Virus record (IMG/VR): IMGVR_UViG_3300021256_000084
Coordinates: 1 to 64,000 of that record
Origin: a virus
Lineage: Duplodnaviria > Caudoviricetes
DNA: 64,000 bases
Direction: 5' to 3' (one strand)
Shown here: positions 25,735 to 44,362 of the stretch, piece after piece
Position numbering within the stretch: position 1 is the first letter of the stretch
Layout of the letters: every line of letters starts with the position of its first letter
The notes under the pieces: generated by a model
Told to the model about the DNA's origin: nothing
The model's input: the letters and a program-made list of their open reading frames with translations, nothing else
Database searches by the model: none
Program-made: the position numbers and the translations under genes

Positions 25735-25736
25735 CT

Positions 25737-26264
25737 ATGACACAGATACAAGTTTACCAAGAAATGTATGTTGACGCATTAAAGCGTCGCATCAGCGCAT
25801 CAGTGGACGAAGAGAATGCGCTGAAAAACATCTTTGGCTTAAAGATTGATTATGTTGGAAAGCAAGTTGCTGATAAGGTTTACAATCTTGACGGCTGCTT
25901 GTACAAAGTAGTGTGCATGAAATACTGTGACTGCTGGAGCTACGATAACGGTGTCAAATTTGAGTTGAACTTCGCCATTGTACCACAAAGCGTGCGTGAA
26001 GCTTTCACCTTGACAAAAACGGAGCGCAAGCTGCTTGACGCTTACGAGCGTGACGTTTTTGAGAAATTCACGAAAAAGCCTTCAAAAGAAAACAGTGTGC
26101 TTTTGGATAAATTGCACCGGGATTTCTACTGGCCTTTGTACAACTGCAAGAACTGTATAACGCCTGTTAAAGACTTCGCATGGATGTACAAACTTGAAGA
26201 AATTACATGCAGCACGTTTGCAACGAACGGAATGATTTACGAGAACGGAAAAACTCTTTGGTAA
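25737..26264 (+). CDS. Hypothetical protein inserted between pcfK and pcfJ
   Basis: 175 aa, more AT-rich than neighbours. Confidence 0.65.
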   Translation: MTQIQVYQEMYVDALKRRISASVDEENALKNIFGLKIDYVGKQVADKVYNLDGCLYKVVCMKYCDCWSYDNGVKFELNFAIVPQSVREAFTLTKTERKLLDAYERDVFEKFTKKPSKENSVLLDKLHRDFYWPLYNCKNCITPVKDFAWMYKLEEITCSTFATNGMIYENGKTLW

Positions 26265-26270
26265 GCAGCT

Positions 26271-27581
26271 ATGAAGCCACATACAAAAGCACATAACGAG
26301 GTGATGCAGCTGCGCGAACAGCTGCGCCCTCTTACAGCAAAGGAAAGATGCTGGGCGTTGAAGCACGTGCCGTACTTCACGGGTCATGCAAGCTACGGCA
26401 AGGTGACGTGCCAGCACTGCGGACATGTCTTTGAGCACAACGGCAAGGACGAGCAGCGTTGCCCACACTGCAAACGGACACTGCACATCACGCAGACGAA
26501 GAAGGAAAGTGCGGACGATATAGAGTGCTTTGTGCTGATGGACGCAGTGGAGCAGTGGCAGGTAATGCGCTACTTCCACGTCATTACGCAAAGCAGGAAG
26601 CGTGGCACGAAAACATCGACGCGTATTTCGGAAATCATGCAGCGTTGGATCGGCGCGGAAGGCAAGTACGTCATCGTTGCCAAGCAGCGCAACATCTGCT
26701 TCTACAACATACGCTGGGTGTATGACAGCGAAATGCAGATACACGGCATACCTGACGAGCACTACATCAACCGCATAGACAACGAGGGCTTTTGCACGTA
26801 CACCGTGCGCAAGTGGCACGCTGCACTGCAACACGTGCAGTACGACTTCGACAAGCTGCAAATGCCGCTGTTCAACTTTGTGCGTGCTTTCATGTCAAGC
26901 TCCTACGCGGAAACGCTGTTCAAGCAAGGACGCTTGCAGCTGTTCAAGTACTGTGCGGAAAACAACTTATTTGGCAGCAAGGAGTTCGTTGCAGCCATGC
27001 GTATTGCGCTGCGTCACAAGTACGACATTGAAAAGGACGTTACGCTTTGGTGTGACTACGTGCAAACGCTGCTGAAGCTCAAAAAGGACGTGCATAATGC
27101 TGTGTACGTCTGCCCGAAGGACTTGCACGCTGCGCATGACTTGTACTTGCAGCGTTGGCGCAAGATTGAAGCGGAGAAGCAGCGCAAGCTTGACGAAAAG
27201 CGCAAGCTTGAAAAGGTGCTGCGTGCAAAGATGGATAACGAAGCGTACATCAAGCGCATGCAGCCGTTCCTTGGGCTGCTGTTTACGGACGGCAAGGGCA
27301 TTTCGCTTCATGTCCTGCGCGACGTTTCGGAGTTCGCAGAAGAAGCCGCCGTTATGCAGCACTGCGTTTTTGATAACGCGTATTACAAAAAGCCGCAGTC
27401 GCTTATTATGAGTGCGCAAGTCAACGGAGAACGCACGGAAACGGTGGAAGTGTCGCTGGCTGATTTTACTATACAGCAGTCACGCGGGCACAGGAACTAC
27501 CCGAGCAAGTACCACAAGCGCATTGTACAGCTTGTAAGGAACAGCTTGCCGATGATTAAGCAGGCAGCGTGTGCAGGATAA
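26271..27581 (+). CDS. PcfJ domain protein
   Basis: C-terminal F.EEAAVMQHCV...YY...SLIMSA...ETVEV...QSRG. Confidence 0.85.
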   Translation: MKPHTKAHNEVMQLREQLRPLTAKERCWALKHVPYFTGHASYGKVTCQHCGHVFEHNGKDEQRCPHCKRTLHITQTKKESADDIECFVLMDAVEQWQVMRYFHVITQSRKRGTKTSTRISEIMQRWIGAEGKYVIVAKQRNICFYNIRWVYDSEMQIHGIPDEHYINRIDNEGFCTYTVRKWHAALQHVQYDFDKLQMPLFNFVRAFMSSSYAETLFKQGRLQLFKYCAENNLFGSKEFVAAMRIALRHKYDIEKDVTLWCDYVQTLLKLKKDVHNAVYVCPKDLHAAHDLYLQRWRKIEAEKQRKLDEKRKLEKVLRAKMDNEAYIKRMQPFLGLLFTDGKGISLHVLRDVSEFAEEAAVMQHCVFDNAYYKKPQSLIMSAQVNGERTETVEVSLADFTIQQSRGHRNYPSKYHKRIVQLVRNSLPMIKQAACAG

Positions 27582-28067
27582 CTACTGCACACGTTTGTTT
27601 TTTGGCAAGTTACGCTGTATCATTTCTTCCGTAGCGGCAGGGAGCTCTCCGTACACTTCACCGCAACGACGCATTATACGAGCCATATTATCGTAGTCCT
27701 TACGCTTTTTGTAAAGTATGCGCAGACGCTCGTAACAATGGCTTGCACGATAACCTAGTGTTGCACATTGTTCATAAACAGCTATTGCTTCATCAATCTT
27801 TCCCTCTTTCTCCAGTGCTATTCCTTTGCTGTTTAGATTTGAAGTTTCAGCCAACAGTTGTTCTTCTTTAATATTCGCTTCATAATACGATTTCGCAGCT
27901 TTGTAATCTGCATCTTCTGTGTCAAACTCTACATAGTCGGGGCGCACACCATTTATATACTCACGCTTGACAATACACCGCAATATACGCCTGCTCAACT
28001 CGTAATCGTTAAATGTACAAGCTGCGCTCATCTTTATTGCGTCGTCAACAGTCATTCTTTGTTTCAT
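27582..28067 (-). CDS. TPR-like protein (moron gene 3)
   Basis: NSKGIALEKEGKIDEAIAVYEQC...CYERLRILYKK helical-repeat pattern. Confidence 0.6.
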   Translation of the reverse strand: MKQRMTVDDAIKMSAACTFNDYELSRRILRCIVKREYINGVRPDYVEFDTEDADYKAAKSYYEANIKEEQLLAETSNLNSKGIALEKEGKIDEAIAVYEQCATLGYRASHCYERLRILYKKRKDYDNMARIMRRCGEVYGELPAATEEMIQRNLPKNKRVQ

Positions 28068-28070
28068 ACG

Positions 28071-28502
28071 TCACATATCTATGCCGTTAAGCATACCCAC
28101 AAACTCCTTGCCGTCTATCTGCAAGTATTTCAGCCCTTGCCCGTCTGCTTTGTTGAGCTGGTACACGACAAGCGTTTTGAACTTGTCCGTTTCAAACGTT
28201 ACTTCCACGTGTGGCGCATTGACAACATACGTAAACGATTCCGCTGCAAGCCTGCTGTCCTGCTTGTACGTGCCAGTCAGCTTGTCGCCTATCCGCTGGA
28301 AGCTGTAACGCTCGCAGTCCGCAAGGGCTTTTTCTGTTAGCAGTCCATCTTCTGGGATTGAGTACCAAAACATAACAGACGTAAGGTACTGCACTGTAAC
28401 GGGCGACGTAGTAGCTGCTGCTGTTTCCTCTTCATTATCACTGCTGCAAGACACAAAGGCAAACGGCACTGCCAGCAGCAGCGCAAATATCCATTTTTTC
28501 AT
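28071..28502 (-). CDS. Lipoprotein (moron gene 2)
   Basis: MKKWIFALLLAVPFAFVS-C signal peptide II followed by acidic SSDNEEE. Confidence 0.85.
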   Translation of the reverse strand: MKKWIFALLLAVPFAFVSCSSDNEEETAAATTSPVTVQYLTSVMFWYSIPEDGLLTEKALADCERYSFQRIGDKLTGTYKQDSRLAAESFTYVVNAPHVEVTFETDKFKTLVVYQLNKADGQGLKYLQIDGKEFVGMLNGIDM

Positions 28503-28843
28503 ATTGCTTTTTCGTATTTAGGGTTAAGTGATGAAAGCATTTCGGACAGCTGTGCTTGACAAGGCACGCAGTCCTCACTTGTGATGTCATACGCTGCTGC
28601 AAAAGCTTCATCAGCAGCAAGCAGTGCTGCAACGTTGCTGCGAATGGAAGCAAGCAGACGCAGTGTTTGGTAGCTGTGACACACGCGCACAGCGTCAGGG
28701 AACGCGCTGCTGTCAGTACATACTTGGGGCTGTGACATACGCAGTACGTGTGCTGCTGCCTGGCAATAGTCCGCGAGCTGCCTGCTGACTTCTTTGTGCA
28801 ACAGCATAGCTTCGCGCAAGTTTTGTTGTTCGTATTTGTGCAT
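28499..28843 (-). CDS. Hypothetical protein (moron gene 1)
   Basis: ATG at 28843, downstream of TATCTTTG at 28868-28875. Confidence 0.55.
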   Translation of the reverse strand: MHKYEQQNLREAMLLHKEVSRQLADYCQAAAHVLRMSQPQVCTDSSAFPDAVRVCHSYQTLRLLASIRSNVAALLAADEAFAAAYDITSEDCVPCQAQLSEMLSSLNPKYEKAI

Positions 28844-29000
28844 ATCCAAAAGCTTAAAATCCGCTTGCAAAGATAGTAAAAACCTGCCAAAATCGGTAGG
28901 TTTTACGCATTGTTTAACAAATAAAAACACGCTATATATTGCAGCTTTGCAGGTTCATGTTGGTTAATACTAAGCGTTTTGGGTTAATCATTCATAAATT

Positions 29001-29077
29001 GTATAGTAATTGTTAGGTTTGTATAGTTTTTCTTAATAACTTTGCCGTACAGTTTAACAAAAAGCGATACGACAATG
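29001..29077 (+). promoter_or_regulatory. Promoter/leader cassette 3
   Basis: TTAGGTTT 29013-29020, N16, TAACTTTG 29037-29044, AGTTTAAC, ACGACAATG. Confidence 0.8.
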
Positions 29078-29431
29078 AAACAAGTATTTAAGAACATCGA
29101 CGAAGAATTGGACGCCTACAGCGCATTTCTTGACAGCAGCGAGTATGGAAAAACAGTGAAACAGATACGTGAAGCCTGCAAGGATATGTTTTACACGTAC
29201 AAAGGCGAGTTTGGGCTGGAGAGCAGCGAGCTTACTGACTACGGCACGATGTACAGCTGGGGCTTTAACGGCAATGAAAAGTGCTTTGCAGAAAACTTAA
29301 CGGGCTTCCTTGCAGAGTATGACATTGTACTGCGCAAGAAGGACGGCACGGCTGACGAGCGCAACAGCAACCACAACGATGTAGCAAAGCTGCTTAACAA
29401 GCTGTACCAGCTGGCAGAACAGACAAAGTAA
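29075..29431 (+). CDS. Hypothetical protein
   Basis: Starts at ACGACAATG. Confidence 0.7.
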   Translation: MKQVFKNIDEELDAYSAFLDSSEYGKTVKQIREACKDMFYTYKGEFGLESSELTDYGTMYSWGFNGNEKCFAENLTGFLAEYDIVLRKKDGTADERNSNHNDVAKLLNKLYQLAEQTK

Positions 29432-29453
29432 CAAACCATAAATAGACACGACA

Positions 29454-29831
29454 ATGAAGTACGACATGGAAGTTTGGCAGCAAGCCGTAACACAGATGCA
29501 GGACGCAAACAAGGTAATGCGCGAGCGCATCAACAGCAAGCCCAAGGGCTACGTAATCGTAAGCAACACGTTTGACCACTGCGTAGGCTGCGACGATAAA
29601 AGGTACGCAACAGCGGAAGTAATCGCTTTCAGCACACAGCCAGTAGTGTTGCAGCGTAACAACGCAGAACGTCTTGCACGCACATTCAAAGCATACTGCG
29701 GACGCGACGAGCAGCGCATCTATTGGCAGGTGATGAACGTGCTGGAGTATTACAAGCGGCTTATCAACCGCAACGAGCAGACGATCCAGCTGATGCAGGA
29801 CGTGCTGGCAGGAAAGGGAATAGGACAATAA
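29454..29831 (+). CDS. Hypothetical protein
   Basis: Starts at ACGACAATG. Confidence 0.7.
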   Translation: MKYDMEVWQQAVTQMQDANKVMRERINSKPKGYVIVSNTFDHCVGCDDKRYATAEVIAFSTQPVVLQRNNAERLARTFKAYCGRDEQRIYWQVMNVLEYYKRLINRNEQTIQLMQDVLAGKGIGQ

Positions 29832-29885
29832 TAGTTTAACACGGGCAGCGTACACGCTGCGCTGCCCACAATAGAAGCAACGACA

Positions 29886-30269
29886 ATGAAACAAACACTT
29901 TGGGTAGAGTTTAAGTCACAGCGCAAGCGTGCTGCTGACTGCACAGTAAGGGCGCTCATGAAGCTGCTGGGCGTTACCTGGGAAGAAGCTTACGACGAGC
30001 TTTGCAAGCAAGGGCGCAGGCTTAAGCGAATGACAAACGAAACGGAATGCGTGTATGCAGCACTTGCAGGCTACGGCTACGTCAAGCGTTCAATCAGCGT
30101 AGAAAAGGGCAGCAAGCGCCCGACGGTACAGAGCTTTGCAGCAGCACACCCGAAAGGGCACTACTTGCTGAAAGTTGCCAACCATGTTGTAGCTGTAGTG
30201 GACGGACACTATTACGACAGCTGGGATTGCGGCGACAAGTGCTTGTACGGATATATGGAGCTGCCATAA
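29886..30269 (+). CDS. Putative papain-like (Cys-His-Asp) peptidase-fold protein
   Basis: DCTVRA, HVVAVVDG and YYDSWD in the order of a catalytic triad. Confidence 0.5.
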   Translation: MKQTLWVEFKSQRKRAADCTVRALMKLLGVTWEEAYDELCKQGRRLKRMTNETECVYAALAGYGYVKRSISVEKGSKRPTVQSFAAAHPKGHYLLKVANHVVAVVDGHYYDSWDCGDKCLYGYMELP

Positions 30270-30332
30270 TTTTATATATAAGTTTGACGCAGGGAGCAGC
30301 AACACGGCTGCTCCCACAAAAAGAGAAGCAGA

Positions 30333-30506
30333 ATGGCAAGACTAAAGTACGTTCCAGTAGCACAGCGCGACGCATACTTGCAGGGCAAGCAGTACGCAAG
30401 CATCAGCTGTACGGGCAGCTTGCACGGCATGAAAAAGCGTTACGGCTGGGACAAGGCAAAGGAGATTTTCAAAAGTGGTAACTATTACTACGCAGTATGG
30501 AACTAA
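30333..30506 (+). CDS. Small hypothetical protein (57 aa)
   Basis: Read manually: MARLKYVPVAQRDAYLQGKQYASISCTGS... Confidence 0.6.
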   Translation: MARLKYVPVAQRDAYLQGKQYASISCTGSLHGMKKRYGWDKAKEIFKSGNYYYAVWN

Positions 30507-30522
30507 CAAAAACAGTACGACG

Positions 30523-30879
30523 ATGAAAAGAATAGACGAGTTAAAGAAAGGCGACGTTGTTAGCTGCATCAGCAGAGACTCAAGGAGCGGCAACGTTGAA
30601 GCAACGGTAAAGAGCATTGGACGCAAGTACATTACTGTGGATGGTGTGAATAAGTCTTACTCCAAGTACGAGCGCGAAACGCTGGTGTGCGCTGATTGGT
30701 CAAGCTGGGAACTGTTTCCCGGTACGCTGGACGAATATGCACAGCACCTTAAAGACGAGCATGAGCGCGAAGAAACTATCAGGCGCATAAACCGACAGCT
30801 GCAAAAGCTGGAATTGAGCCAGCTGAAAAGCTTGACAGAAGCATTACAGAACATCTTAACACCACAAAGCAAAGGATGA
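30523..30879 (+). CDS. Hypothetical protein with SH3/KOW-like N-terminus
   Basis: LKKGDVV...ATVKSIGRKYITV. Confidence 0.65.
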   Translation: MKRIDELKKGDVVSCISRDSRSGNVEATVKSIGRKYITVDGVNKSYSKYERETLVCADWSSWELFPGTLDEYAQHLKDEHEREETIRRINRQLQKLELSQLKSLTEALQNILTPQSKG

Positions 30880-31101
30880 TGAAACAGAGCAGCACAACGT
30901 ACCCTGCACGCATAGCAGCTATGGTGCAGCAGTTTGAGACAATCGAAACACAACCCGCAATCAGCACACAGCAGATGTCTATACGCATGGAGCAGCCCTG
31001 CGGCTGTAACCTTACGGAACACTTCAACTGCCACAAGGAGGACTTGCAGCAGCGTTACTACGTAGAACTTTGCGACGAACACAAATTAAATCTATAAGAT
31101 T

Positions 31102-31440
31102 ATGCAAGCAGTATCAAACATCAAGCAGTCACAACGCCTGCTGAAGCTTTTAGGCAACGACAGCACAGCGGACTTTTGGCGCACGCCCAAGGTTGGCGGG
31201 TACACAGTAAGCACGGAGAAAGCTGCAAACAGCATGCCGTGCTGGAGCGTGCAGGCTCTTATGGATATGCTGGACGAGTATTGGGACGATGAAAACGGAA
31301 CTGCACTTCCGTTTATCAACTGCGAGGAAAACAGCGTGTACTTTGAAGCAAACGGCTTTCTTGTCGAGGACTTTTCACAAAGCACGCTGCTGATAGACAA
31401 TATCATCGACGCGCTGGAATGGCAGTCTAAACAAGAATAA
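31102..31440 (+). CDS. Hypothetical protein
   Basis: STADFW..., PCWSVQALMDML. Confidence 0.65.
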   Translation: MQAVSNIKQSQRLLKLLGNDSTADFWRTPKVGGYTVSTEKAANSMPCWSVQALMDMLDEYWDDENGTALPFINCEENSVYFEANGFLVEDFSQSTLLIDNIIDALEWQSKQE

Positions 31441-31447
31441 AAGCATT

Positions 31448-31925
31448 ATGGTAAAAACCAAACTAAACATTGAGCTTGCAGATAACGGTGTTATCCTGCG
31501 AGACCCCGAAAACAGCGACATAGTAACTGTTGCTAAAGTAGATGACTACGGGCACAGCAAGGACAAAAACGATGTGTACAATGCTGTAGGCAAACAACTC
31601 ATGCTTGCGCTTGAAGCAATCGTTCCGCCACAGGGAATGAAGCTGTACGGCTATAAGCTCGACATCAGCGTGCAGCTTGTAACAAAACCATTGGGCGAGT
31701 TTTAGCGGAAATACAAAACATTTTAGGACAATGAAAGAATACGAAATTGAAGTAAAGCTGTCATTCACGGGCTGTGTAACGGTGAACGCTGACAGCAAGA
31801 TTGAAGCCCTGCAAATCGTGCGAGACAACTTCCGCGCTATGCTTGGGCAGTGCGAGGACAATGGGTGTGACGCGATTGTTGATTGGGATATAGACCCGCA
31901 CAACAGCGCGATAGTTGCGAAATAA
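31448..31925 (+). CDS. Two small hypothetical genes (31448-31705 and 31731-31925)
   Basis: ORF track; A-rich leaders. Confidence 0.6.
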
Positions 31926-32009
31926 CGTGGTTTGCCGCGCTGCTGCTCGCTTTTAATTCCGTTTCCGCGTAGTTATTCGGGCAGCAGCGTGTGCGTGCCT
32001 TACAGCGAC

Positions 32010-32049
32010 AAAAAAAGCCGCTGTGCAAGTACGACAAACACACAGCGGC
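32010..32049 (-). terminator. Minus-strand terminator upstream of the ARH operon
   Basis: GCCGCTGTG/CACAGCGGC stem with T-run on the minus strand. Confidence 0.55.
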
Positions 32050-32224
32050 CACGACATTTCAGTTTAACTTTGTGTAAAAAACTGCACGAGCAAGCACAGT
32101 CGATACAACAATGTCAGTGCAAAGGTAGCATTTTTAACCCAATAAATAGCTCAAAAGTGCAGAATTTTGGGTAATTTTGCAGAAAAATAAGTAAACAAAG
32201 GATATTTTAAGACGTTTCAGTATT

Positions 32225-32977
32225 ATGTTAGGAGCAATTATAGGCGACATTGTAGGGTCGCGCTTTGAGTTCAACAACACGAACAAGTACGACTTCGGGG
32301 AGCTGTTTACGCACGAATGCAGCTTCACGGATGATACAATCTGCACCGTAGCAATAGCGGATGCACTGCTTAACGGCAGCAAGGACTATAAAGGAAGCCT
32401 GCTTAAGTGGTGCAGGAAGTACAATGGTCTTTGCTATGGTCGTGCTTTTAAGGCATGGATAGACAATCCAGTACCTTACAACAGCTTTGGCAATGGTGCT
32501 GCAATGCGCGTCAGCCCGGTAGCATGGGCGTACAGTACAGCAGCGGAAGTCACCAGCGAATCTATTGCTACAGCAAACGTGTCTCATAACCACCCAGAGG
32601 GCATAAAGGGAGCAATGGCAGCTGCGCTTGCTGTGTACTACCTACGCACGACAAAAAAGCGGGAGTGCCTGGACGTTATAGAGGGTATGTTCTATGACCG
32701 TAAGGCAAAGTATAAGCGTGGCGTGTTTGACACGACTTGTCAAGGAACAGTACCTATCGCACTGCGCATCGTGCATGACAGCAAGGACTTTGAGGACGCA
32801 ATAAGGCTGTCAATGGCTTGGGGCGGCGACAGCGACACCTTGGGCGCAATAGTCGGCTCAATGGCAGAAGCGTTGTACGGCATACCCGTTGGCATACAGC
32901 GTTACGCAAAAAGCTATCTGCCCGACGATATGCTGCAAGTTGTGAACATGTTCTATAAGAAATTCATACTGCTGTAG
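32225..32977 (+). CDS. ADP-ribosylglycohydrolase (DraG/ARH1 family)
   Basis: GDIVGS, FTDDT, GNGAAMRVSP, HNHPE and GGDSDT motifs all intact; own TAATTTTG at 32172-32179. Confidence 0.92.
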   Translation: MLGAIIGDIVGSRFEFNNTNKYDFGELFTHECSFTDDTICTVAIADALLNGSKDYKGSLLKWCRKYNGLCYGRAFKAWIDNPVPYNSFGNGAAMRVSPVAWAYSTAAEVTSESIATANVSHNHPEGIKGAMAAALAVYYLRTTKKRECLDVIEGMFYDRKAKYKRGVFDTTCQGTVPIALRIVHDSKDFEDAIRLSMAWGGDSDTLGAIVGSMAEALYGIPVGIQRYAKSYLPDDMLQVVNMFYKKFILL

Positions 32978-32981
32978 GTTT

Positions 32982-33791
32982 ATGAAAAAGACTATAACGA
33001 TAGAGATTGAGGACGGCGTAGGCGTAAACGTGTACTACGAAAAAGAGGGCGAGCAGCGCAAGCACTGGAGCAAGTGCGAGCCAATGGAAAGCGTGGAAAT
33101 CTACGCTGCTTCGCGTGTCCTTGCAGCAGGCACGGAAATGACTGCTGCCTACATTGCTTCGGGCATGCACAGGACTGTAGAGGAACTTGCAGGCACTATC
33201 AAGGAGTTCAACAAGGTTATGGGTAAAGTAAAATGATTACAGCAAAGACATACAAAGCGTTGAAGCTGCTGGAGCACACACAGCGTTTCAGCAAGGTAAT
33301 GACTGCGCACGACTTCGCGCTTGCTTTTTGGGGCAACGACGCGGACAAGCAGTATTTGTTTACGGCTGTGTCTAACAGCGGTAACGGGGCGTGCAGCGGA
33401 AAGAAAGCTTGGCTGTGTGCTGGTTCTTATCTCTCTGCACTATACAAGCGTGGTCTTACACGCTGGCAACCTCGCTGCGACTATCACCCGACGGGGTACA
33501 AAATAACGGAGGCAGGAATGCAAGCAATAAAGGAGTACGAACTTCAAAACAACATACACAATGGCTAAGAAAAAAAAGTTTTCGATGTTTAACGATCCGT
33601 CCTTCTCTAATTTTACGGACAAGGATTGGAAAAAATGGAAAAGGAACGAGCACAAGACACCTGACGGCACGCCGCCTTTTATCTGTGAGAAGTGCATGCT
33701 TTGCACAGAAGATGATACTTGTGAAATTCTCACGCAGGCACAGCAGCAAGCCCGCATAAACTTGGGCGAGTGCGAAGATAAAATAGAGTAG
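32982..33791 (+). CDS. Three small genes in the ARH operon (32982-33236; 33233-33568 winged-helix-like; 33561-33791)
   Basis: Overlapping starts and stops; YKITEAG wing-like motif in the middle gene. Confidence 0.6.
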
Positions 33792-33814
33792 GTACTTGTA
33801 TGTACCTGCTCTAT

Positions 33815-36760
33815 TTATTTCACACGACATTTTATCTCTACGATTTTACGCGTGCTGTTGTACTCCACTTCCAGAAGCTCTAAGTGTGTGTTGCGTCCTA
33901 AAACGCATTCACTCTCGTAATCGTTTCTTGTTACATATACAGGTGTTCCTTGCGGTATTTCAATTTGCAACTGAAATTTTCTGCTTGTGAATACGTTCAT
34001 GCGTGCATCTGTTGATACAGACATGAAACCTGCATCTGCTTCCAGCTCCTTCAGCGGAAGTGCTTTAAGCTTTGTTGCAATTTCATTGACGCTGAGCTTG
34101 GTTTCGGAATCGACTGGAAGTGTACCACCAAACAAAGGATTTACGCCGTCAAAAGTAAGGTTACGTACTATTTTTATCGGGAACGGCAAACTGTTTCTTG
34201 CGATAACAGCGTCCAGTGTCTCAATGGTTTTTATATCATCATCATTTAGCATGCCGCCGTACAAATCCATTGCAAACTGCACGTTCTTATTGCCTTTAAG
34301 CGTACCGACAATCTTGTTTTTTCCTTTGCCATGCACGTCGCGCAAAGCTCCATTTATTTTGAAGCTGTTGCTCGTGCCAATGTAGCCGCCGGGAGAGTGT
34401 GCCCACGTCTGCGTCTTCTCTGTATTTGTGATGTCACAAATTTTTGCCAATACCATATGCTGCTTAGACGTAAGATACACACAGCCGTCCACAATGTTGA
34501 TGTCGGCAGCGGAAAGACTTTCTCCATGCTGCGTGAACAGTCGTACCATTGCATCTTTAATCTCCGTGTCAGTCATTTTTTGCGTGGGCATGGCTGCTGC
34601 ACTTGCCTTTGGCGTCGCACTTGCCGAACTTTTAGCAGCCCTTAAGCGTGCTTCTGCTTCCAGCCGCTTAACGCGTTGCTTTAAGTCTGCGGCTTTTGCA
34701 CGTACTTCCACAAGGCTTGCGTCGTTGTCCTTAAGCATGCCCTGCAATTCAACACCGAGATTAGAAACTATCTTACTTCGCGTTGTAGCTGCAAACTGCA
34801 ATTCATGCTGTATGCTTGCACTTATTGCATTGAACTCTATTCGCTTGTTCACGATGTCAAGCCTATGCTGTAATGCGGCTTTTGAAATCTCTTTCGTTTT
34901 GTACTTCGTGCCGTTGACAACGTTAATTTCACGCTCCAAGCGACCTTTGAGGAACTGCAATGAAGCGTCTGTATCAAAGTCCCACGTCCAGCGGTTGAAT
35001 GTACGCTGTATGGCTGCTTGTGCGCCTTGCACTTCTGCTGACGTAAACTGCTTAAACCACGCAAGGGCGTTTGGTGTAAACTGTTCCAGCTGTGCTGCCT
35101 GCTTCTTGACTTCCGCAATCTGCTTTGCAAGCGTCTTGGTAAGGTTGGCAGCTTCTTTGAGCTTGTACTGCAACAGCAGGTCACGCAACAGCCCTGCGCT
35201 GGCTGACGTGTCAACGAAAGCAAGCTTGTCGGCAACGGCAAGCACGTTGCGCCCTGTCTTGAGAATAAGCTGATGTTCCTTCTGCCGCTCATACCATGCA
35301 ACCTTAACGGACATGTCGTTACGCTTGGCGTGCCGTGTGTCTGCAAGCTGCTGTATGCGTATGCCGTTCCAAATGTCCGCGTATGCAGTCTTGATTGCGT
35401 CCTTGTTTCCGCTGCTAATCGCGTTTTGCAACGCGGTAAGGCGTTTTAGCAGCACGGGCGAGCTACTATTCAGGCCAGCATTACTTATTGCCCTGTGCGC
35501 CCTTTTTAGCTGGTATTCATTCCAACGCTTCTGTGCTGCTGCATCATCACGCTGCGCGTGCCGCCACACCTTTGCTTCTTCGGGAGTACGTCCGCGTGTC
35601 TGCAAGCCCATGTCCTGCAACTTCTCCTTGTCGAAGATAGTACGCAGGTACTTCGGGTTATCACGGAACACGTAGGCAAGCGTGCCGCGCTCACCTGCAC
35701 GCTGGATCTGCTCGCGGTGCTGCTGCAAGTAGTCCTTGTACTGCTGCGGAACGTCCTTAACAGTACCCTTGCACTCAAAGTTTGACACGTCCTCGCCTGC
35801 ACGTTTCCGACGGTGGTACTCGCGTATTTCCTCACGGCTGGCAGTAATGGCGCTTGCAGCACACATGCACTGCGGATGGAAGCCGCTAAACTTGAAGTCC
35901 TTCGGGTAGTCGCCCCATAACTCGTCGCAAATATCGGGCTCGGGATGCTGCGGACTGCCCCAAATGCGTATGCCAATGACAAACGGCTCGTTTTTCCAAC
36001 GCTCGCAGTTTGCGTAATGGTAAGACATGTTTATTTCCGTGCGCATCAAGCGGAACGTGTTGCGGTAGCTGCTGCGGTACACGCCCTGTCCTACTTCTTC
36101 CAGCGGTGCTTCAATGAAGCGTACTTTGCCTTCCTCGTCAATAATGCGCTTGTGCCACTTCACAACGTCCTTGGCAGCACCGCCCTTGGTAATGACCTTG
36201 TGATGATAGCGTCTGTACATCATGTCCGGCTCTTGCAGCTGCCCGTACACCTTACGGGAAAGCTCCGCTGCACTTGTGCCCTTTGCAAGCCCGTCCGTAA
36301 TGACGTTGCTCATAGCCATTTCAAACTCGCTTTTCGTCTGCTCCGCATAGTTCCACACACGCTGCGACAAGTTCAAGCCCTGCGGCGTGTTCATGCGCTG
36401 CGCAAGGAAAGCACTTGCAGCAAGGTTGCGTACCTGCATGACTGCTTCATCGTTGAGCACCGTGTAGCCTTTCAGTGTGCGTGCATCCTGCCCGAAAGCA
36501 AGCCCTACGCCCGACTGTATGCCGCTTTGCGCGAGCAACAGCTGCTCGCGGACGTACTGACGGAAGATGTCGTTAAGACGCGTCTTAAGCTCTGGGAAGT
36601 TGTCAAACAGAAACAGCGCGTCCTCACTAAGCTTCTGTTCAACGTTGATGCCCAGTGCTGACAGCTGCTTGATAAACTTGCCGTACAGCATGCCTATCCG
36701 TATGTTGTACTTGGCAAACAGTGCCGTGAGTTCTTTTTGCTGCGCTATGTTTTGAGCCAT
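33815..36760 (-). CDS. MuF (SPP1 gp7-like) minor head protein with C-terminal ADP-ribosyltransferase domain
   Basis: N-terminal LSQRVW, RLMRTE, HPQCMC MuF motifs; C-terminal IVRN, FMSVST, ESE (R-S-E class); follows portal. Confidence 0.88.
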   Translation of the reverse strand: MAQNIAQQKELTALFAKYNIRIGMLYGKFIKQLSALGINVEQKLSEDALFLFDNFPELKTRLNDIFRQYVREQLLLAQSGIQSGVGLAFGQDARTLKGYTVLNDEAVMQVRNLAASAFLAQRMNTPQGLNLSQRVWNYAEQTKSEFEMAMSNVITDGLAKGTSAAELSRKVYGQLQEPDMMYRRYHHKVITKGGAAKDVVKWHKRIIDEEGKVRFIEAPLEEVGQGVYRSSYRNTFRLMRTEINMSYHYANCERWKNEPFVIGIRIWGSPQHPEPDICDELWGDYPKDFKFSGFHPQCMCAASAITASREEIREYHRRKRAGEDVSNFECKGTVKDVPQQYKDYLQQHREQIQRAGERGTLAYVFRDNPKYLRTIFDKEKLQDMGLQTRGRTPEEAKVWRHAQRDDAAAQKRWNEYQLKRAHRAISNAGLNSSSPVLLKRLTALQNAISSGNKDAIKTAYADIWNGIRIQQLADTRHAKRNDMSVKVAWYERQKEHQLILKTGRNVLAVADKLAFVDTSASAGLLRDLLLQYKLKEAANLTKTLAKQIAEVKKQAAQLEQFTPNALAWFKQFTSAEVQGAQAAIQRTFNRWTWDFDTDASLQFLKGRLEREINVVNGTKYKTKEISKAALQHRLDIVNKRIEFNAISASIQHELQFAATTRSKIVSNLGVELQGMLKDNDASLVEVRAKAADLKQRVKRLEAEARLRAAKSSASATPKASAAAMPTQKMTDTEIKDAMVRLFTQHGESLSAADINIVDGCVYLTSKQHMVLAKICDITNTEKTQTWAHSPGGYIGTSNSFKINGALRDVHGKGKNKIVGTLKGNKNVQFAMDLYGGMLNDDDIKTIETLDAVIARNSLPFPIKIVRNLTFDGVNPLFGGTLPVDSETKLSVNEIATKLKALPLKELEADAGFMSVSTDARMNVFTSRKFQLQIEIPQGTPVYVTRNDYESECVLGRNTHLELLEVEYNSTRKIVEIKCRVK

Positions 36761-36804
36761 TTGTGCGACTTTTTTTATTTTCTACACTTTGTTTTTTCTT
36801 GTCT

Positions 36805-36958
36805 TACGCGCACGCATACGCACGCACGTTAATTACCATTGCTTTACTGTTTATTATTTATTAAATATTATATTATATATATGTCCTTATCTTTAGGGGC
36901 TTCGATGGGGCTTAAACGTAACTTGCTGATATTCAACGCATAAAAGACGAGTAAAACC
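36805..36958. repeat. Degenerate ~160 bp repeat, copy B
   Basis: Aligns block by block with 15371-15530. Confidence 0.75.
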
Positions 36959-37223
36959 GCTGTTTTGCATTTCGTAACATTTTTGCAAGGTATTTTTGCA
37001 GTTAGCGATTAGGTTTTAACAAAACCTTAACACATTTCAGCCGTTTTTGCCCTGCTTTGCTTCTTCGTTTAGATTTGTTTGCTGTTTTAACACGCCCTTA
37101 ACTAAAAAAGTGCGCCTGCGCTGCTGTTTTCCTTAATTCCCGTTAATTACAACGGTTAATATCAGTTAATCAGCTTTACAGACGCACCGCTGTGGGCGAA
37201 ATCGAACAACAGCCTACATATTA

Positions 37224-38696
37224 CTATTCATCACCAGCACTGAAGCTGTCGCCAGCCCCAAACAAGTCACGCTGCTGCTTTGCCGCTTCCGCTGCTTCTG
37301 CCTTTAGCTGCTTCAGCGTTTCCTCGGGATTGTCAACAATCGGATTCTTGTACACACCTTCCTCTTGTGACATCGTGGGCTTGCCGTTAGTGCTTAAGTT
37401 GATGATTTCTATTTCTTCCTTTTTGTTCTTGGGCAGGTACAGCTCAAAGTGCGGCTCGACAAACGTCTGCTCTACCGTTTCCGTACCCACGCCGTCACGC
37501 TGCGCACAGCCGCCCTTTACGACGTTGAAGCGACGTTCAAAGTTCTCGCCGAAAAGCTCCTGCTTGTCGTCTGCCTTCATAAACGCATCCGTGAACATAA
37601 GGCTTATGGCAACGCCGCTTGTGTTGCTGCCTATCTCCTTCATGGACTTAAAGCTGATGTCGGGTGTCTGCGTATAGCTGAATATGACGTTGAACAGCTC
37701 CGCAAGCTCGCCCTTGATGCTTTCGGGGCTGCTGTCCCATGACAGCACCTTCATGTCCGTCTCGTTGCCCTCGCCTTGGTACACCTTGCCCTGCTCGCCC
37801 TTTTCGGCAAAGCCCTTAAGCTTTCCCTTGAAGAAGTACGAGGGAGAGCCGAAGTAGTCGTTGGTGTCGCCCCAATTAGACAGCAGCGTATCTACGCGGT
37901 CACAAGCTGGCTGCACATCGTCCCATTCCGTTTTTTCCTGCCTGTAGTACACAATGGGCAGGCGGTCGAAGCCGTGCGGTACGGGTGCTGTATCTACTGC
38001 GTACAGCTGTGCGCCGTTTGCTTCCGTCGCAAAGCGGTAAACAAAGCGGTTGGTGTAGATGTCGAAGTGCATGATGTACTGACCCAGCAAGTCCATCGTG
38101 CGGTAGCCGCGCCCGAAGCCGTCCATGCGTCCGTAGTCGTCAAAGTGCGGCAGCAGCAAGTCACCACGCGACGGGCTTAACAGCTGCACGCGCATTTCAC
38201 CGCTTGTCGGCTTGCCGTTCGCGTCCGGCACAAAGTACCAAAGCTCCGCTGCTTCACGCTCGCGGAACACTGTGCGGGCAAGCTTCTTGTCAAAGTACGG
38301 CATCTTGTTCTGCTCAAAGACAGTCATAACGCTGTCAAAGAGCTGCTGCGAAGCGTCGCTTGTAGCGCCTTTGCCCTTAAGCTGGTACGTGACGGGCTTA
38401 CCAAGCAAGAAGCCTGCCGTGCGCTCAACAAGCAGCTTCTGAACGGGAACAGCAACACGGCACACATCCACGTACTTAACCTTGTAGATGGGATTGCCGT
38501 CTGCGTCGAACTTGTCCGTCTTGACTTTCACTTGCTTGCGCTTGCGCTTCGTGCGGTCAAAGACTGCGTGACGGTACACGTCATACTCCGCTTCCGTCTC
38601 GGAAAAAGACTTGCTGAACTTGGGCTTGCAGCGTTGCAGCGAATCACGCATCTGCTCGCCGCTGCTAAGTGCCAATACTTCTTCTATCTTGCTCAT
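37224..38696 (-). CDS. Portal protein (SPP1 gp6-like)
   Basis: 490 aa after TerL; GFLLGKPVTY, YSYTQTPD, SGVAI motifs. Confidence 0.9.
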   Translation of the reverse strand: MSKIEEVLALSSGEQMRDSLQRCKPKFSKSFSETEAEYDVYRHAVFDRTKRKRKQVKVKTDKFDADGNPIYKVKYVDVCRVAVPVQKLLVERTAGFLLGKPVTYQLKGKGATSDASQQLFDSVMTVFEQNKMPYFDKKLARTVFREREAAELWYFVPDANGKPTSGEMRVQLLSPSRGDLLLPHFDDYGRMDGFGRGYRTMDLLGQYIMHFDIYTNRFVYRFATEANGAQLYAVDTAPVPHGFDRLPIVYYRQEKTEWDDVQPACDRVDTLLSNWGDTNDYFGSPSYFFKGKLKGFAEKGEQGKVYQGEGNETDMKVLSWDSSPESIKGELAELFNVIFSYTQTPDISFKSMKEIGSNTSGVAISLMFTDAFMKADDKQELFGENFERRFNVVKGGCAQRDGVGTETVEQTFVEPHFELYLPKNKKEEIEIINLSTNGKPTMSQEEGVYKNPIVDNPEETLKQLKAEAAEAAKQQRDLFGAGDSFSAGDE

Positions 38697-38699
38697 AAA

Positions 38700-40325
38700 T
38701 TACAGTATATCCAATAGTCCTTCTGCATCCAATCCCTCGCCGTTCTGTCCGAGTACTTCTTCAAGTATGACGTAGCGGATTGCGTCGATGCAGTTGTGTA
38801 CAAGCAGGCCGTTGGCGTAGTATTCATGCTGTTGCGCTACTTCCAAGTCAAAGACTTGGGCCTCGCCTGCGTCCTCTGCAAAGATAGCTTTAATTTCCCG
38901 TGCTGTTTGCTCGTTGCGCTTTGTTTGTGTAAACACAACGTCGCCTGCGTGCAAACACGCGATTTTTTGCCACTTTGCAGCCGTTTTTACAAGGTGATTG
39001 GGCGTTGCCCGAACAACTATCTGCGCATCGTCAAAAACAAGCGTGTAACGCTGAATTTTGCGCTTTCCGTTCTTCCACAGCTTTGTTACGCGCTTGTAGC
39101 CTGCACTCGTCAGCACCAAATCGTCCGTCGTGATGTTGGCAATACGCTTTGCGCCCATCGATGTTGTTACAAGCGTGTCTGCTGTGAAGCAGTGGTTGAA
39201 GGCATCTACTGGCTCGTTGAGCCACTTGCCGTTTTTGTCTCGTCTGTACACGTAGCTTTTCAGTTCTTTTATTAGGTTGACACTGCGACGCGTCACGACA
39301 AGCTTAAACTGCTGCATCTTCTGCAAGCCAGCCTTTACGCTGCCGGGGTACTTCTTCACGCCGTGAATGTCAATGCCTGTGTTGTAAATTTCGTCTATTT
39401 CTCGCGGCTCTGCGCTGTCAGCCCACACCTTGGGCATCCATACTTGCTGCTGCTTAAGCTCCTTGATGATGTCCTCCGTACCCATCTGCGTGCGGTAGCA
39501 AAGCTCGTCCAAGTAGATTGTCTTGCCCACAATGCTGACAAGCACAATGGCCGTCGGGTCGTTGGTGTAGCCGAAGTCAAGTCCAAGGAAGCGGTGTCGG
39601 CGTGCCTGGGGCGGCAGCTCGTCCACGATTTCAAACGACTTGAAGATACGCCCCTCAATGATTGCACGCTGCCCAAGCCCGTACACTTGCCACAGCGAGG
39701 GCGACGTGTCCTTAAGTTCCTCAATGCTGTCAATGACGCTTTGCTCCAGAAACGGGTTGTCCTTGTATGTGCTGATGAAGAACTTCGTGCGGGGGCTGTT
39801 GTTTACTTTGGTAACTATCCAGTGGTCTTCGTCAAAGCTCGGGTTGTAGTCTATCAGCGTGAACAGCGTAGTACGGAGCTTAAGCTGCGTCCACTCGTCA
39901 AAGGACAGCTCGTTAGCTTCGTTCACGTACAGTATCATGCGCTTACGACCACGCAAACGCTGATCATCCGTCGCAGGGAAGAACTCTATCCAGCTGCCGT
40001 TTGGAAACGTGTAAATGAAGTCCGTCAGGTTCATGCACTTGTCGCTCCACTGACCCATGCGCTGCATGATGTCCTTGAAGTCGCGGAACACAGTACCTTT
40101 CAACGCAGGGCGCGTGCCACGAACAACTGCAACAGTAGTACCGGGAAACGACAGACAGCGCACGATAAGCCAAATGACGATGGTGTACGTCTTGCTGCTT
40201 CGTGCGCTACCTTGTGCCGACACTGTGCTGTAGCCCGCGTCAAAGGCACTCTGTATAACGTTGTAAACCCTGCTGACTTGTATCTTCACGTTCCTTTTCT
40301 TATATACGTGCGTATGTGCGTGCAA
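38700..40325 (-). CDS. terL: Terminase large subunit (PBSX-like) with intein
   Basis: QGSARSSKT Walker A, YVNEANE Walker B, GLDFGYTNDP nuclease motif, D..NH..DA.RY; start codon uncertain. Confidence 0.92.
   Translation of the reverse strand: MHAHTHVYKKRNVKIQVSRVYNVIQSAFDAGYSTVSAQGSARSSKTYTIVIWLIVRCLSFPGTTVAVVRGTRPALKGTVFRDFKDIMQRMGQWSDKCMNLTDFIYTFPNGSWIEFFPATDDQRLRGRKRMILYVNEANELSFDEWTQLKLRTTLFTLIDYNPSFDEDHWIVTKVNNSPRTKFFISTYKDNPFLEQSVIDSIEELKDTSPSLWQVYGLGQRAIIEGRIFKSFEIVDELPPQARRHRFLGLDFGYTNDPTAIVLVSIVGKTIYLDELCYRTQMGTEDIIKELKQQQVWMPKVWADSAEPREIDEIYNTGIDIHGVKKYPGSVKAGLQKMQQFKLVVTRRSVNLIKELKSYVYRRDKNGKWLNEPVDAFNHCFTADTLVTTSMGAKRIANITTDDLVLTSAGYKRVTKLWKNGKRKIQRYTLVFDDAQIVVRATPNHLVKTAAKWQKIACLHAGDVVFTQTKRNEQTAREIKAIFAEDAGEAQVFDLEVAQQHEYYANGLLVHNCIDAIRYVILEEVLGQNGEGLDAEGLLDIL
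38793..39191 (-). mobile_element. Mini-intein (133 aa) in TerL nuclease domain
   Basis: Begins CFTADT, contains TPNH, ends YYANGLLVHN before Cys+1; removal restores PVDAFNH-CIDAIRY. Confidence 0.92.
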
Positions 40326-41232: not shown

Positions 41233-41844
41233 TTACTCAATCTTAGTGTTGTTGACTAAGTTCATGAACTCGCTGCGTACAGCTGCGTCCGTGAGGAACA
41301 GCCCTTTAAGGCAGGAGTTTGACATAATGCCCTTCTTGCGTGCTCCGCGTATTTCCTTGCACGTGTGATGGGCTTTCATTACGCAGGCAATGCCCAGCGG
41401 AGCGCACTCTGCTGGCACGTCGCTTGTCAGTGCTTCCTCAATCATATTCACTACGTCATGCACCAAACGCTCCTGTATCTGCATGCGTGCAGCACAGTAG
41501 TCCACGACGCGGGCAATCTTGCTCAAACCGAGTATCTTGCCGTTGGGGTGTGGAATGTAGGCAAAGAAGTACTGCCCCATGAAAGGCAGCACGTGGTGCT
41601 CGCACATTGAAGCAAAGTCGCCCGTGTCCGTAACCATTTGGTCGCACACAAGGTTGTCCTTGCCGTTGTCAAACACTGTAATCTTGGGCTTCTGCGCCGG
41701 GTCGTAGCCGCGAAACAGCTCTTTCCACATACGCACGACACGCTCAGGCGTGCCTTGCAGCCCAGCACGGTTCGGGTCTTCGCCCACATACTCCAGCAGC
41801 TCGCGCACATGCTGCTCTGCTTGTTCCTTTGTCAGCTTTGCCAT
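41233..41844 (-). CDS. folE: GTP cyclohydrolase I
   Basis: TPERV, SMCEHH, GLSKIAR, QIQERL and HTC..IRG motifs; start at MAKLTKEQ. Confidence 0.95.
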   Translation of the reverse strand: MAKLTKEQAEQHVRELLEYVGEDPNRAGLQGTPERVVRMWKELFRGYDPAQKPKITVFDNGKDNLVCDQMVTDTGDFASMCEHHVLPFMGQYFFAYIPHPNGKILGLSKIARVVDYCAARMQIQERLVHDVVNMIEEALTSDVPAECAPLGIACVMKAHHTCKEIRGARKKGIMSNSCLKGLFLTDAAVRSEFMNLVNNTKIE

Positions 41845-41848
41845 AGTG

Positions 41849-42187
41849 CTATTCCTCGTCAAGTTTGTAAGTAGCAACGTTGCTCTCGCTTTCCTGCACG
41901 TCAGCACGGTAGCACTGCGGAATGGTGTCAACAATCCACTTTGCAATGTTCTCGGCTGTCGGGTTGAAAGGCAGCAGCTCGTTAAGGTTGCCGTGGTCGA
42001 GCCTTCCGTGTATTGCACGCTTGATAAGCGCGAAGTCTGCAACCATGCCGTCCTTGTTCAGCTCCTTTGCCTTGCAATAGACGGTGACAATCCAGTTGTG
42101 GCCGTGCAAGTTTGCGCACTTGCTTTCGTAGGACAGCTGCAAGTGATGGCAGGCAGCTATTTCCATTCTTTTCTTTACGTAGTACAT
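41849..42187 (-). CDS. queD: 6-carboxy-5,6,7,8-tetrahydropterin synthase
   Basis: ACHHL, C.NLHGHNW, LDHGNLNE and NPTAENIA motifs. Confidence 0.93.
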   Translation of the reverse strand: MYYVKKRMEIAACHHLQLSYESKCANLHGHNWIVTVYCKAKELNKDGMVADFALIKRAIHGRLDHGNLNELLPFNPTAENIAKWIVDTIPQCYRADVQESESNVATYKLDEE

Positions 42188-42237
42188 AGTCTTTATACTT
42201 TTACAGTTCTTTCCAATTCTTCTAACACTTGAAAGTT

Positions 42238-42912
42238 TTACACGCCGCGCTTGTCCGCGTCCCAGATGAACTTGTGGATTTGCAGCTGCATTTTAACCCC
42301 GTTAAGGCGATTTTGAATAAGGAACGATGCAATGTCTTGAAGCTCTATCGTTCCGAAGCATGCGCTCACTAAAACGTTGGTACGTGCAAGCAAGTTGTTT
42401 TGCTCGACAACGTACTTCATAATCTGCAAGTCGTGCAAGCTGCCCACAACAAACTTAACGCAGTCCGTCTTGTTGAGGTAGGCATAATTGCTTTGCTTCA
42501 TCAGCTTTTGGTATGCGTTGCCTGCGCACTCCGTCTTGTAGTCCAGCGTTAGGCAAGGGCGATAAGACAAAGGCAGCTCCGCAAGCTCTGCAACGGACAT
42601 ACTGCCGTTTGTCTCTATCTCTACCCGGTAGCCGTTGTTTGCAAGCTGCAAAACAAGTTCCTTGATGTTCGCTTGCATAAGCGGCTCGCCACCCGTCAGC
42701 GTGACGTTCTTTACGTCCTGCTGCTGCACGTACTCCAGTAGCTCCTTTGCTGTCAGCTCTTCGTACTGTTCCGCTTTGTCGTAAGAATACTTGCTGTCGC
42801 AGTAGTCGCAGCGCAAGTTACAACCGAAGAAGCGGATGAACACGGCAAGCTCGCCACTGTGCAAGCCCTCACCGTTAATGCTTACGAATTTCTCTACTAC
42901 TTTGTACCGCAT
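42238..42912 (-). CDS. queE: 7-carboxy-7-deazaguanine synthase (radical SAM)
   Basis: SINGEG, CNLRCDYCDS, TLTGGEP and QIHKFIW motifs. Confidence 0.93.
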   Translation of the reverse strand: MRYKVVEKFVSINGEGLHSGELAVFIRFFGCNLRCDYCDSKYSYDKAEQYEELTAKELLEYVQQQDVKNVTLTGGEPLMQANIKELVLQLANNGYRVEIETNGSMSVAELAELPLSYRPCLTLDYKTECAGNAYQKLMKQSNYAYLNKTDCVKFVVGSLHDLQIMKYVVEQNNLLARTNVLVSACFGTIELQDIASFLIQNRLNGVKMQLQIHKFIWDADKRGV

Positions 42913-42917
42913 ACAGA

Positions 42918-43586
42918 TTACTCCTTGTAAACAGTCATGTCTTCAACGCCTGCTGCGGCAAATGCAGCCTTACGGTTGCGGCAGCTGTCACACACACCAC
43001 ACTGGCACTCTCCGTTCTCGTAGCACGACCACGTCTCTGCCAAGATGTCCTTGTCTTTCTCGTAGGCATACTTGATAAGGTCTGTTTTGTGCAGCCCAAG
43101 CAGCGAAGCGGTTTCAATCTTTACGTGCTTCTCGCCACGGAACGTGCCCATATCCATTGCAAGCTCAAAGGCTTTGAAGAACGCGGGCGAGCAGTCGGGG
43201 AAAGCATACTCACCGTTGACAAGCACACAATCGTCCATGTGGCTTCCCAGCACGATCTTGTCAAAGCCGTTGGAATACGCGTACACCATAGCGATTTGCA
43301 GGAACATAGCATTACGCAAAGGCACGACTACGCTTTTTTTGTAGCCCTGCTCTACTGCAACATCGTTTGTCAGCTGGTTTTCCTTGCCAAAGATGTGCTT
43401 AAGCGAGGAAATATCCATGCGCTCAAAGCCGAGGTTGTACTTGCTTGCAAGCTTCTCTACCACCTCGCTTTCCCGTTTTGCTTTCTGACCGTAGTAAAAG
43501 GTCATAAGCGTGGTGTCCTCGTTTACGTAACGGAGTGCCATAGACACCGAATCAAGCCCTCCCGAACAAATAACTAATACTTTCAT
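42918..43586 (-). CDS. queC: 7-cyano-7-deazaguanine synthase
   Basis: SGGLDS, VPLRNAMF, FPDC and TWSCY..CGVCDSC motifs. Confidence 0.95.
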   Translation of the reverse strand: MKVLVICSGGLDSVSMALRYVNEDTTLMTFYYGQKAKRESEVVEKLASKYNLGFERMDISSLKHIFGKENQLTNDVAVEQGYKKSVVVPLRNAMFLQIAMVYAYSNGFDKIVLGSHMDDCVLVNGEYAFPDCSPAFFKAFELAMDMGTFRGEKHVKIETASLLGLHKTDLIKYAYEKDKDILAETWSCYENGECQCGVCDSCRNRKAAFAAAGVEDMTVYKE

Positions 43587-43598
43587 ATTCGTTGTTTT

Positions 43599-44360: not shown

Positions 44361-44362
44361 AC

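Follow-up and report, generated by a model that had tools for sequence, protein, structure and literature searches.

Bxa, a MuF protein with a C-terminal ADP-ribosyltransferase (ART), is encoded by a prophage of Bacteroides stercoris ATCC 43185; it kills Escherichia coli via its ART activity (E820) and modifies arginine (Alexei et al. JBC 2024, PMC11699363). Two further proteins act on it: the adjacent ADP-ribosylhydrolase (ARH) BAH, with catalytic E15, neutralises Bxa by hydrolysis alone, without binding, and rescues E. coli, and the small protein Bsi binds Bxa and has been modelled in its active site, with K89, Y90 and E92 mapped (PMC11699363). In gut Bacteroidales, Bxa orthologues are accompanied by BAH-like and Bsi-like genes, the genes being adjacent in a prophage head module (PMC11699363), and the gut epithelium is a documented extracellular target of Bxa. 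Here we describe a related locus in a 64,000-nucleotide stretch of viral DNA (Duplodnaviria; Caudoviricetes), positions 1 to 64,000 of the 86,161-bp IMG/VR virus record IMGVR_UViG_3300021256_000084, which CheckV rates as complete; the whole stretch is called the window below. The locus is probably a MuF polymorphic-toxin module of the Bxa family, carried by a temperate phage of gut Bacteroidales; in this module a cassette-derived ART tip with an ExE motif faces a convergent, presumably protective operon that contains an ARH eraser and a small protein, o76. An earlier note on this DNA had read the locus as a writer/eraser pair of MuF-ART and hydrolase. That interpretation is partly supported: its core is right, but the core was already published and the novelty was overestimated. 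Because a MuF-fused ART checked by a hydrolase and a binding protein was already established, the headline claim adds little; the new element is an exchanged toxin tip, accompanied by a small candidate immunity gene of its own.

Several other systems offer partial parallels. MuF polymorphic toxins (Jamet et al. 2017, PMC5576092; Apk2/Aph1/Tis1, PMC10083569) join a conserved MuF domain for trafficking to a C-terminal toxin that varies, with immunity genes next to them, and Apk2/Aph1/Tis1 likewise combines one enzymatic 'eraser' with one binding immunity protein (PMC10083569). Apk2 toxins differ in making (p)ppApp, and Firmicutes immunity genes usually lie downstream on the same strand, whereas those of the window are convergent. 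An Arg-type ART neutralised by an ARH-family enzyme is also found in Tre1-Tri1 of the Serratia proteamaculans type VI secretion system (T6SS; PDB 6DRE/6DRH) and in Listeria Lmo0066/Lmo0067 (PDB 8ZA7), and both structures are among the matches of the window proteins; their delivery is by T6SS or another route, unlike that expected of a phage head protein. Unlike BAH, Tri1 binds its toxin as well (PMC11699363). T4 Alt, a head-packaged and injected Arg-ART, is comparable as a virion-associated enzyme of the Alt/VIP2 group, although T4 has no linked hydrolase. DraT/DraG shares the principle of reversible Arg-ADP-ribosylation with an ARH-fold enzyme, DraG being instead a nitrogenase regulator. To our knowledge, packaging in or injection from the virion has not been shown for any MuF-ART, and the virion injection, host reprogramming and 'reset for lysogeny' put forward in the earlier note are speculation.

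The agreement with Bxa/BAH/Bsi (Brown et al. 2021; PMC11699363) is one of architecture: after the portal comes a MuF head protein with a C-terminal ADPrib_exo_Tox ExE ART, and convergent to it is a cluster with a ~250-residue ARH (E15) and small open reading frames (ORFs), in what is again apparently a temperate phage of Bacteroidales. The differences lie at the toxin tip and beside it. The window toxin has 981 residues rather than 869 and a tip of a different sequence subtype, here named 'W-type'; an unrelated gene, o76, replaces the Bsi-like gene, and two extra small genes stand between the ARH and o76. The features of the module are as follows, identities being to the syntenic phages L019 and L021:

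32225-32977, plus strand: BAH-like ARH, 250 residues (PF03747, E 1.3e-31; PHROG 6572, E 9.6e-65)
32982-33236, plus strand: o84, 84 residues, specific to the phage lineage, function not assigned (99% identity to L019, 77% to L021)
33233-33568, plus strand: o111, 111 residues (94% identity to L019)
33561-33791, plus strand: o76, 76 residues, candidate cognate (binding) immunity protein of the W-type ART
33575-35087, not stranded: exchanged cassette, nearly all of o76 plus toxin residues ~559-981, by blastn against L019
33781-33818, not stranded: long inverted repeat between the convergent stop codons, where the ORF unit meets the toxin gene; resembles a bidirectional terminator
33815-36760, minus strand: whole MuF-ART polymorphic toxin, 981 residues, with a MuF/gp7-like head-morphogenesis domain (~1-385), a helical middle region and the ART domain
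33815-34450, minus strand: C-terminal W-type ART domain, residues ~771-981 (R866, S914-x-S916, E949-x-E951)

The exchange itself is seen by alignment with L019, whose flanking sequence is nearly that of the window. Nucleotide identity is 97.4% over window positions 25225-33574 and 98.2% over 35088-39542, and between them (33575-35087) similarity is undetectable. In the slot taken by o76 and the W-type tip, L019 holds a Bsi-like gene of 120 residues (o120) and a Bxa-type tip, which places o76 in the position of Bsi. By this comparison the swap is a textbook polymorphic-toxin exchange, toxin tip and putative immunity gene changing together. The ARH, o84 and o111 all lie outside the cassette, the latter two being common to both phages. 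Since the ARH stands outside, it would be a generic eraser serving several ExE-type ART subtypes, and the small binding immunity protein would be the subtype-specific part. With their flanks 97-98% identical, the window phage and L019 amount to an isogenic pair, a natural experiment for cross-immunity. The nearest relatives of the window ARH (70-87% identity) belong to L019 and the similarly arranged phages L020-L022, in which the ARH is followed by one to three small ORFs and then by a convergent MuF-toxin, portal and terminase.

For the toxin, the earlier claim of a MuF head protein ending in an R-S-E ART domain holds. R866 (IVRN), S914-V-S916-T (FMSVST) and E949-S-E951 are invariant, both among 14 full-length relatives and in a 7-sequence alignment of the domain, and Pfam ADPrib_exo_Tox (PF03496) matches residues 797-968 with 27.8 bits, above its curated cut-off of 23.4. 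Searched against the PDB, a profile of the ART-domain family matches Vip2, C3larvin, Plx2A, iota Ia, CDTa and C3. An AlphaFold2 model of the domain (predicted local distance difference test, pLDDT, 81.5) retrieves C3bot, C3stau2, Plx2A and CDTa with Foldseek (E ~1e-9, TM 0.6-0.68), as well as Vip2 and the ART chain of the Listeria 'ART-ARH toxin effector-immunity pair' 8ZA7. We regard the W-type domain as confirmed, at the level of a predicted structure, as an R-S-ExE ART with a C3/Vip2/CDTa-like fold. The N-terminal third has PHROG 16625, 'Bxa ADP-ribosyl transferase', as its best match (E 2.4e-66), with PHROGs 7625, 1657 and 115 (head morphogenesis or minor head protein) also found, and residues 57-456 share 32% identity with the MuF-ART of the Bxa-like Bacteroides phage Versailles. 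The tip behaves differently. With residues 770-981 as query, BLASTP gave no match to the Versailles (Bxa-type) C-terminal domain at E <= 10, and the two have only the Pfam family in common; we therefore rejected the toxin domain as a Bxa orthologue, with Versailles standing in for Bxa. W-type tips are rare (17 clusters among 5.8 billion proteins). An exhaustive profile search returned 38 W-type representatives at E <= 1e-30, inside a broader family of 704, and a search of GTDB genomes with the whole toxin returned only MuF-domain relatives.

Some W-type MuF toxins are longer, at 1196-1301 residues, and include a second, internal toxin domain, Gln_amidase (PF15644). These proteins (P0010; P0014, L014:9941-13531; P0015, L116:6001-9906) have two toxin domains per head protein and extra small ORFs downstream.

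The hydrolase was claimed to be intact, with TDDT, GNG and GGDSDT motifs, and every one of these was found (residues 35-38, 89-91 and 200-205, respectively), together with the catalytic E15 and the metal ligands D36, D37, T38, D202, D204 and T205. Of 67 alignment columns with at least 97% conservation in 112 close homologues it retains 66, and its ratio of non-synonymous to synonymous substitution (dN/dS) is 0.18 against L019, the same value as among ARHs paired with Bxa-type toxins. As judged from these comparisons, the gene is intact and under purifying selection. Its product is 59% identical to the Versailles ARH, the first 19 residues, E15 included, being the same in both. Sequence matches in the PDB include ARH3, DraG, Tri1 and ARH1. 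Scores fall far below the equivalog cut-offs for DraG (TIGR02662, 43.8 against 337 bits) and Tri1 (NF041672, 41.2 against 490 bits), so that the earlier label 'DraG-type' is valid at the superfamily level only. The proposal that an ARH serves as enzymatic immunity against a MuF-fused Arg-type ART has been demonstrated for the homologous Bxa/BAH pair (PMC11699363), and by analogy with B. stercoris BAH, for which this was seen experimentally, the window ARH would hydrolyse Arg-ADP-ribose and rescue cells from the toxin.

Within the ARH gene (window 32250-32750), nucleotide identity to L019 falls to ~82%, in a patch between flanks that are 98-99% identical, and synonymous divergence (dS) is 0.39, as against ~0.08 in neighbouring genes. 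The patch points to a hydrolase allele with its own recombination history, apart from that of the toxin cassette.

The ARH and the MuF-ART are indeed convergent, with 837 bp between their stop codons, close to the ~840 bp first given; the interval is not an empty spacer, however, being filled by three packed plus-strand ORFs. The ARH heads the resulting four-gene unit (ARH, o84, o111, o76), in which ORF ends overlap or abut. The last of these genes had been overlooked: it is literally true that no same-strand immunity ORF follows the toxin, as the earlier note reported, but o76 ends 23 bp from the toxin stop on the opposite strand. Members of the o76 family (26 clusters) have four invariant cysteines (C42, C45, C54 and C71) and a conserved N-terminal motif, FSxFxDPSF...W..W..N. 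In 10 of 11 lineages the gene directly after the W-type toxin gene, on the other strand, is an o76 homologue; in the Bxa system Bsi is likewise convergent with its toxin. We considered and discarded homology of the three small ORFs o84, o111 and o76 to Bsi, BLASTP being negative and hhalign giving a probability below 1% against an alignment of eight Bsi-like sequences. Searches of the small ORFs with NCBIfam and PADLOC returned no matches. We take o76 as an undescribed small four-cysteine (Cys4) family that is a candidate for immunity.

The two genes between ARH and o76 are less telling. o84 shows dN/dS of 0.06-0.36 and has no Pfam, PHROG, NCBIfam or PADLOC match. o111 has homologues at 50% identity that immediately precede the ARH at six other loci; it gives a Pfam HTH_45 match at E 0.063, and its structural neighbours in the Atlas are the winged helices of MarR, PadR and HrcA. 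It is probably a small winged-helix protein, which we offer as a lead only.

How widely the two enzymes go together was examined from the hydrolase side. BAH-like ARH genes number at least 545 in IMG/VR; we examined the 80 best loci, 61 of which have at least 5 kb downstream. A convergent MuF protein is present in 60 of these 61, at a distance of 0.3-3.3 kb. The tips facing the ARHs are of Bxa type in 34 loci (30 with a Bsi-like ORF), of W or W-like type in 3 and of a third type in 23. Every typed tip is an ART, by BLAST or Pfam on representatives, with at least three ART subtypes and an ExE motif in the representatives read. On this evidence a BAH-type hydrolase is the constant partner of at least three ExE ART sequence subtypes, and the small, putatively binding immunity gene changes with the tip.

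Seen from the toxin side, the association is looser. An ARH is present in two of eight W-type lineages: that of the window and L028/L029, a diverged prophage in a Prevotella metagenome-assembled genome, in which an ARH, an o76-like gene and a convergent W-type ART are 51-63% identical to the window proteins. Co-occurrence of MuF-ART and ARH, which the earlier note had proposed as a check, is accordingly borne out for ARH loci, which are not distributed independently of MuF proteins, but not for W-type toxins. An ARH that is almost never without a MuF-ART, and a W-type ART that is often without an ARH, fit an accessory generic eraser combined with a subtype-specific binding immunity. The notion of the ARH as a co-evolved partner of the W-type ART is contradicted by its place outside the swapped cassette and its absence from six of the eight lineages.

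The third tip type (23 loci in L045-L107, for example L045:10044-12506) belongs to MuF proteins of 817-823 residues that face BAH-like ARHs. Two representatives match PF01129 (NAD:arginine ART) and PF03496 and have an EDE motif. Beside the toxins of this type no Bsi-like or o76-like ORF was detected; their binding immunity gene, if any, would be another undescribed family.

Taken together, we propose that the MuF minor head protein carries at its C terminus an R-S-ExE ART that would be arginine-specific and toxic to bacteria, and that the convergent, separately promoted four-gene operon would protect the producing cell. Within it, the BAH-type ARH would strip ADP-ribose from modified arginines, as its homologue BAH does, and o76 would bind and block the W-type ART, being a functional analogue of Bsi and not a homologue; o84 and o111 would be lineage-specific extras. 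The toxin tip and o76 would have arrived as one recombination cassette, replacing a Bxa-type tip and its Bsi-like gene.

A different history could be written for the hydrolase. As a legacy passenger from a Bxa-type ancestor, it would have no purpose against the resident toxin, or give only cross-protection against the Bxa-type or ExE ARTs of other phages, while o76 alone worked against the W-type ART. Such a history agrees with the position of the ARH outside the cassette, with the six W-type lineages that do without it and with the pairing of all its closest relatives with Bxa-type tips; yet the diverged lineage L028/L029 also combines ARH, o76-like gene and W-type ART, in L101 and L102 an ARH accompanies W-like ARTs, the window gene is intact with its low dN/dS, and a generic Arg-ADP-ribose eraser should act whichever ExE ART wrote the mark. 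We hold the passenger account to be unlikely. Far less probable still is an anti-defence enzyme that reverses marks set by the ARTs of hosts or competitors and has no connection with the MuF-ART of its own phage. ARHs that lack a linked ART are indeed encoded by some large phages, those of Aeromonas, Erwinia and Bacillus (phage G), and Iyer et al. treat enzymes that remove ADP-ribose without a coupled ART (PMC9503650). In the BAH-like clade, however, the convergence of ARH and MuF protein at 60 of 61 loci, with ARTs at all typed tips, argues against an independent role of this kind, as do the rescue of cells from Bxa by BAH (PMC11699363) and the lack of PADLOC matches.

Doubt about o76 is of another sort, since it could be a small zinc-ribbon protein that regulates, say, lysogeny or excision, sits at the end of the operon by chance and has nothing to do with immunity. 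Four invariant cysteines would suit such a protein, as would a winged-helix-like neighbour (o111) and those orphan copies, described below, that small chromosomal elements carry between their S24 repressor-like gene and their integrase. What speaks for immunity is the company it keeps: o76 strictly adjoins the 3' end of the W-type ART in phages that share as little as 32-53% identity in their MuF N-domains, it moved in the same exchange as the toxin tip, into the slot that is Bsi-like in L019, and its closest orphan stands in a row with two Bsi-like orphans. A regulator by coincidence of position seems to us improbable.

Several observations nevertheless weigh against the module as we have proposed it. 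An ARH is absent within 6-10 kb in six W-type lineages (L011, L014 and L114-L117), so the hydrolase is dispensable for a W-type ART and may be a leftover from a Bxa-type ancestor. Nor did another eraser turn up in ARH-less loci: Pfam on 10 neighbouring ORFs (L011, L014) gave no ARH or recognisable ADP-ribose-removing domain. With flanks only 2-3% diverged, selection may have had too little time since the swap to act on the pairing. Mirror-tree correlations do not separate the ART from the MuF N-domain, ART against o76 giving r 0.67 (Mantel p 4e-4) and MuF N-domain against o76 r 0.77; shared ancestry explains this signal, and we do not use it as evidence. The role given to o76, to bind and block, is read from gene context only, and its AlphaFold2 model is poor (pLDDT 70, predicted TM-score 0.33), with a confidence too low for the model to be used in a fold search. 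Arginine as the acceptor of the W-type ART is an analogy, drawn from the ExE rule and the mapped arginine modification by Bxa. On the N-terminal part of the toxin no match to Pfam Phage_Mu_F (PF04233) was reported at E <= 0.1, so the MuF assignment rests on PHROGs and synteny. Finally, Versailles served as proxy for the B. stercoris Bxa, BAH and Bsi sequences; its MuF-ART has the length (869 residues) and catalytic position of Bxa, with an ExE at E818/E820, and its convergent 107-residue ORF downstream has a KYxE motif like K89/Y90/E92 of Bsi.

Copies of o76 also occur apart from any toxin. The closest homologue of all (82% identity; L025:215-2820, also L026 and L027) comes after an integrase and before two Bsi-like ORFs, and no MuF toxin is present in the 8 kb examined. 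The arrangement resembles a row of several orphan immunity genes in a different mobile element, whose contig was found in many samples. Other o76-like genes (L030:7627-9881, and L031-L033) stand in the order S24 repressor-like gene, o76-like gene, 70-residue ORF and integrase, in small integrated elements of the chromosome, with housekeeping genes (OmpH, ClpS/ClpB) on either side. Polymorphic-toxin systems typically include rows of orphan immunity genes, and the rows support the immunity reading of o76. We suggest, tentatively and with more doubt than confidence, that o76 founds a new Cys4 immunity family specific to the W-type ART, with orphan copies in other elements that have no toxin within 8 kb. 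The orphans bear on whether MuF toxins enter other cells, and they hint that MuF-ARTs get into cells other than those producing them. If so, entry might for instance be by ejection from incoming virions, and against such phages resident prophages and islands would build up a stock of immunity genes.

Upstream of the operon lies a further feature that bears on its expression:

31926-32224, plus strand: intergenic region upstream of the ARH, 299 nucleotides, with a Bacteroidota-type -7 motif and a GC-rich hairpin

The earlier note had given the hydrolase its own TAnnTTTG promoter. The motif is there, as TAATTTTG at 32172-32179, 46 nucleotides before the ARH ATG, but the 8-mer has 61 matches in the window against 44 expected, a mild enrichment, and by itself is weak evidence of a promoter. 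The GC-rich hairpin (~32019-32050) closes the unit upstream of the ARH, and the related phages L019-L022 retain a gap of ~220-300 nucleotides at this place. A scan with sigma-70 and terminator consensus sequences, which does not cover Bacteroidota promoters, found no more sites than in shuffled sequence. On the minus strand, a TACCTTTG motif occurs at 32120-32127, and together with the hairpin it falls within 32010-32127 of this intergenic region.

On its other side the toxin gene joins the head module, identified from the ORF list:

37224-40325, minus strand: portal (37224-38696) and large terminase (38700-40325), in a head module with the MuF-ART

The order on the minus strand is terminase, portal and the 981-residue MuF-ART ORF, the toxin lying directly downstream of portal and terminase, and in syntenic relatives the portal and terminase match Pfam SPP1_portal and Terminase_3/6N. 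Megablast of window positions 30-40 kb against GenBank phages gave no match. Farther along on the minus strand are a tyrosine integrase (45767-46939; PHROG 1, E 1e-20, with a Pfam score slightly under the cut-off) and a CI-like repressor (47211-47837), from which the phage looks temperate. Upstream of the packaging genes, minus-strand genes for queuosine/7-deazaguanine (preQ0), QueC-like and with a DpdA-like transglycosylase, occupy window 41233-44953. The large terminase of the sister phages L021 (13480-14759) and L022 (13206-14765) has 839 residues, with weak intein/Hint matches in Pfam, as against 541 residues for the window ORF; this difference may be a presence/absence polymorphism of an intein.

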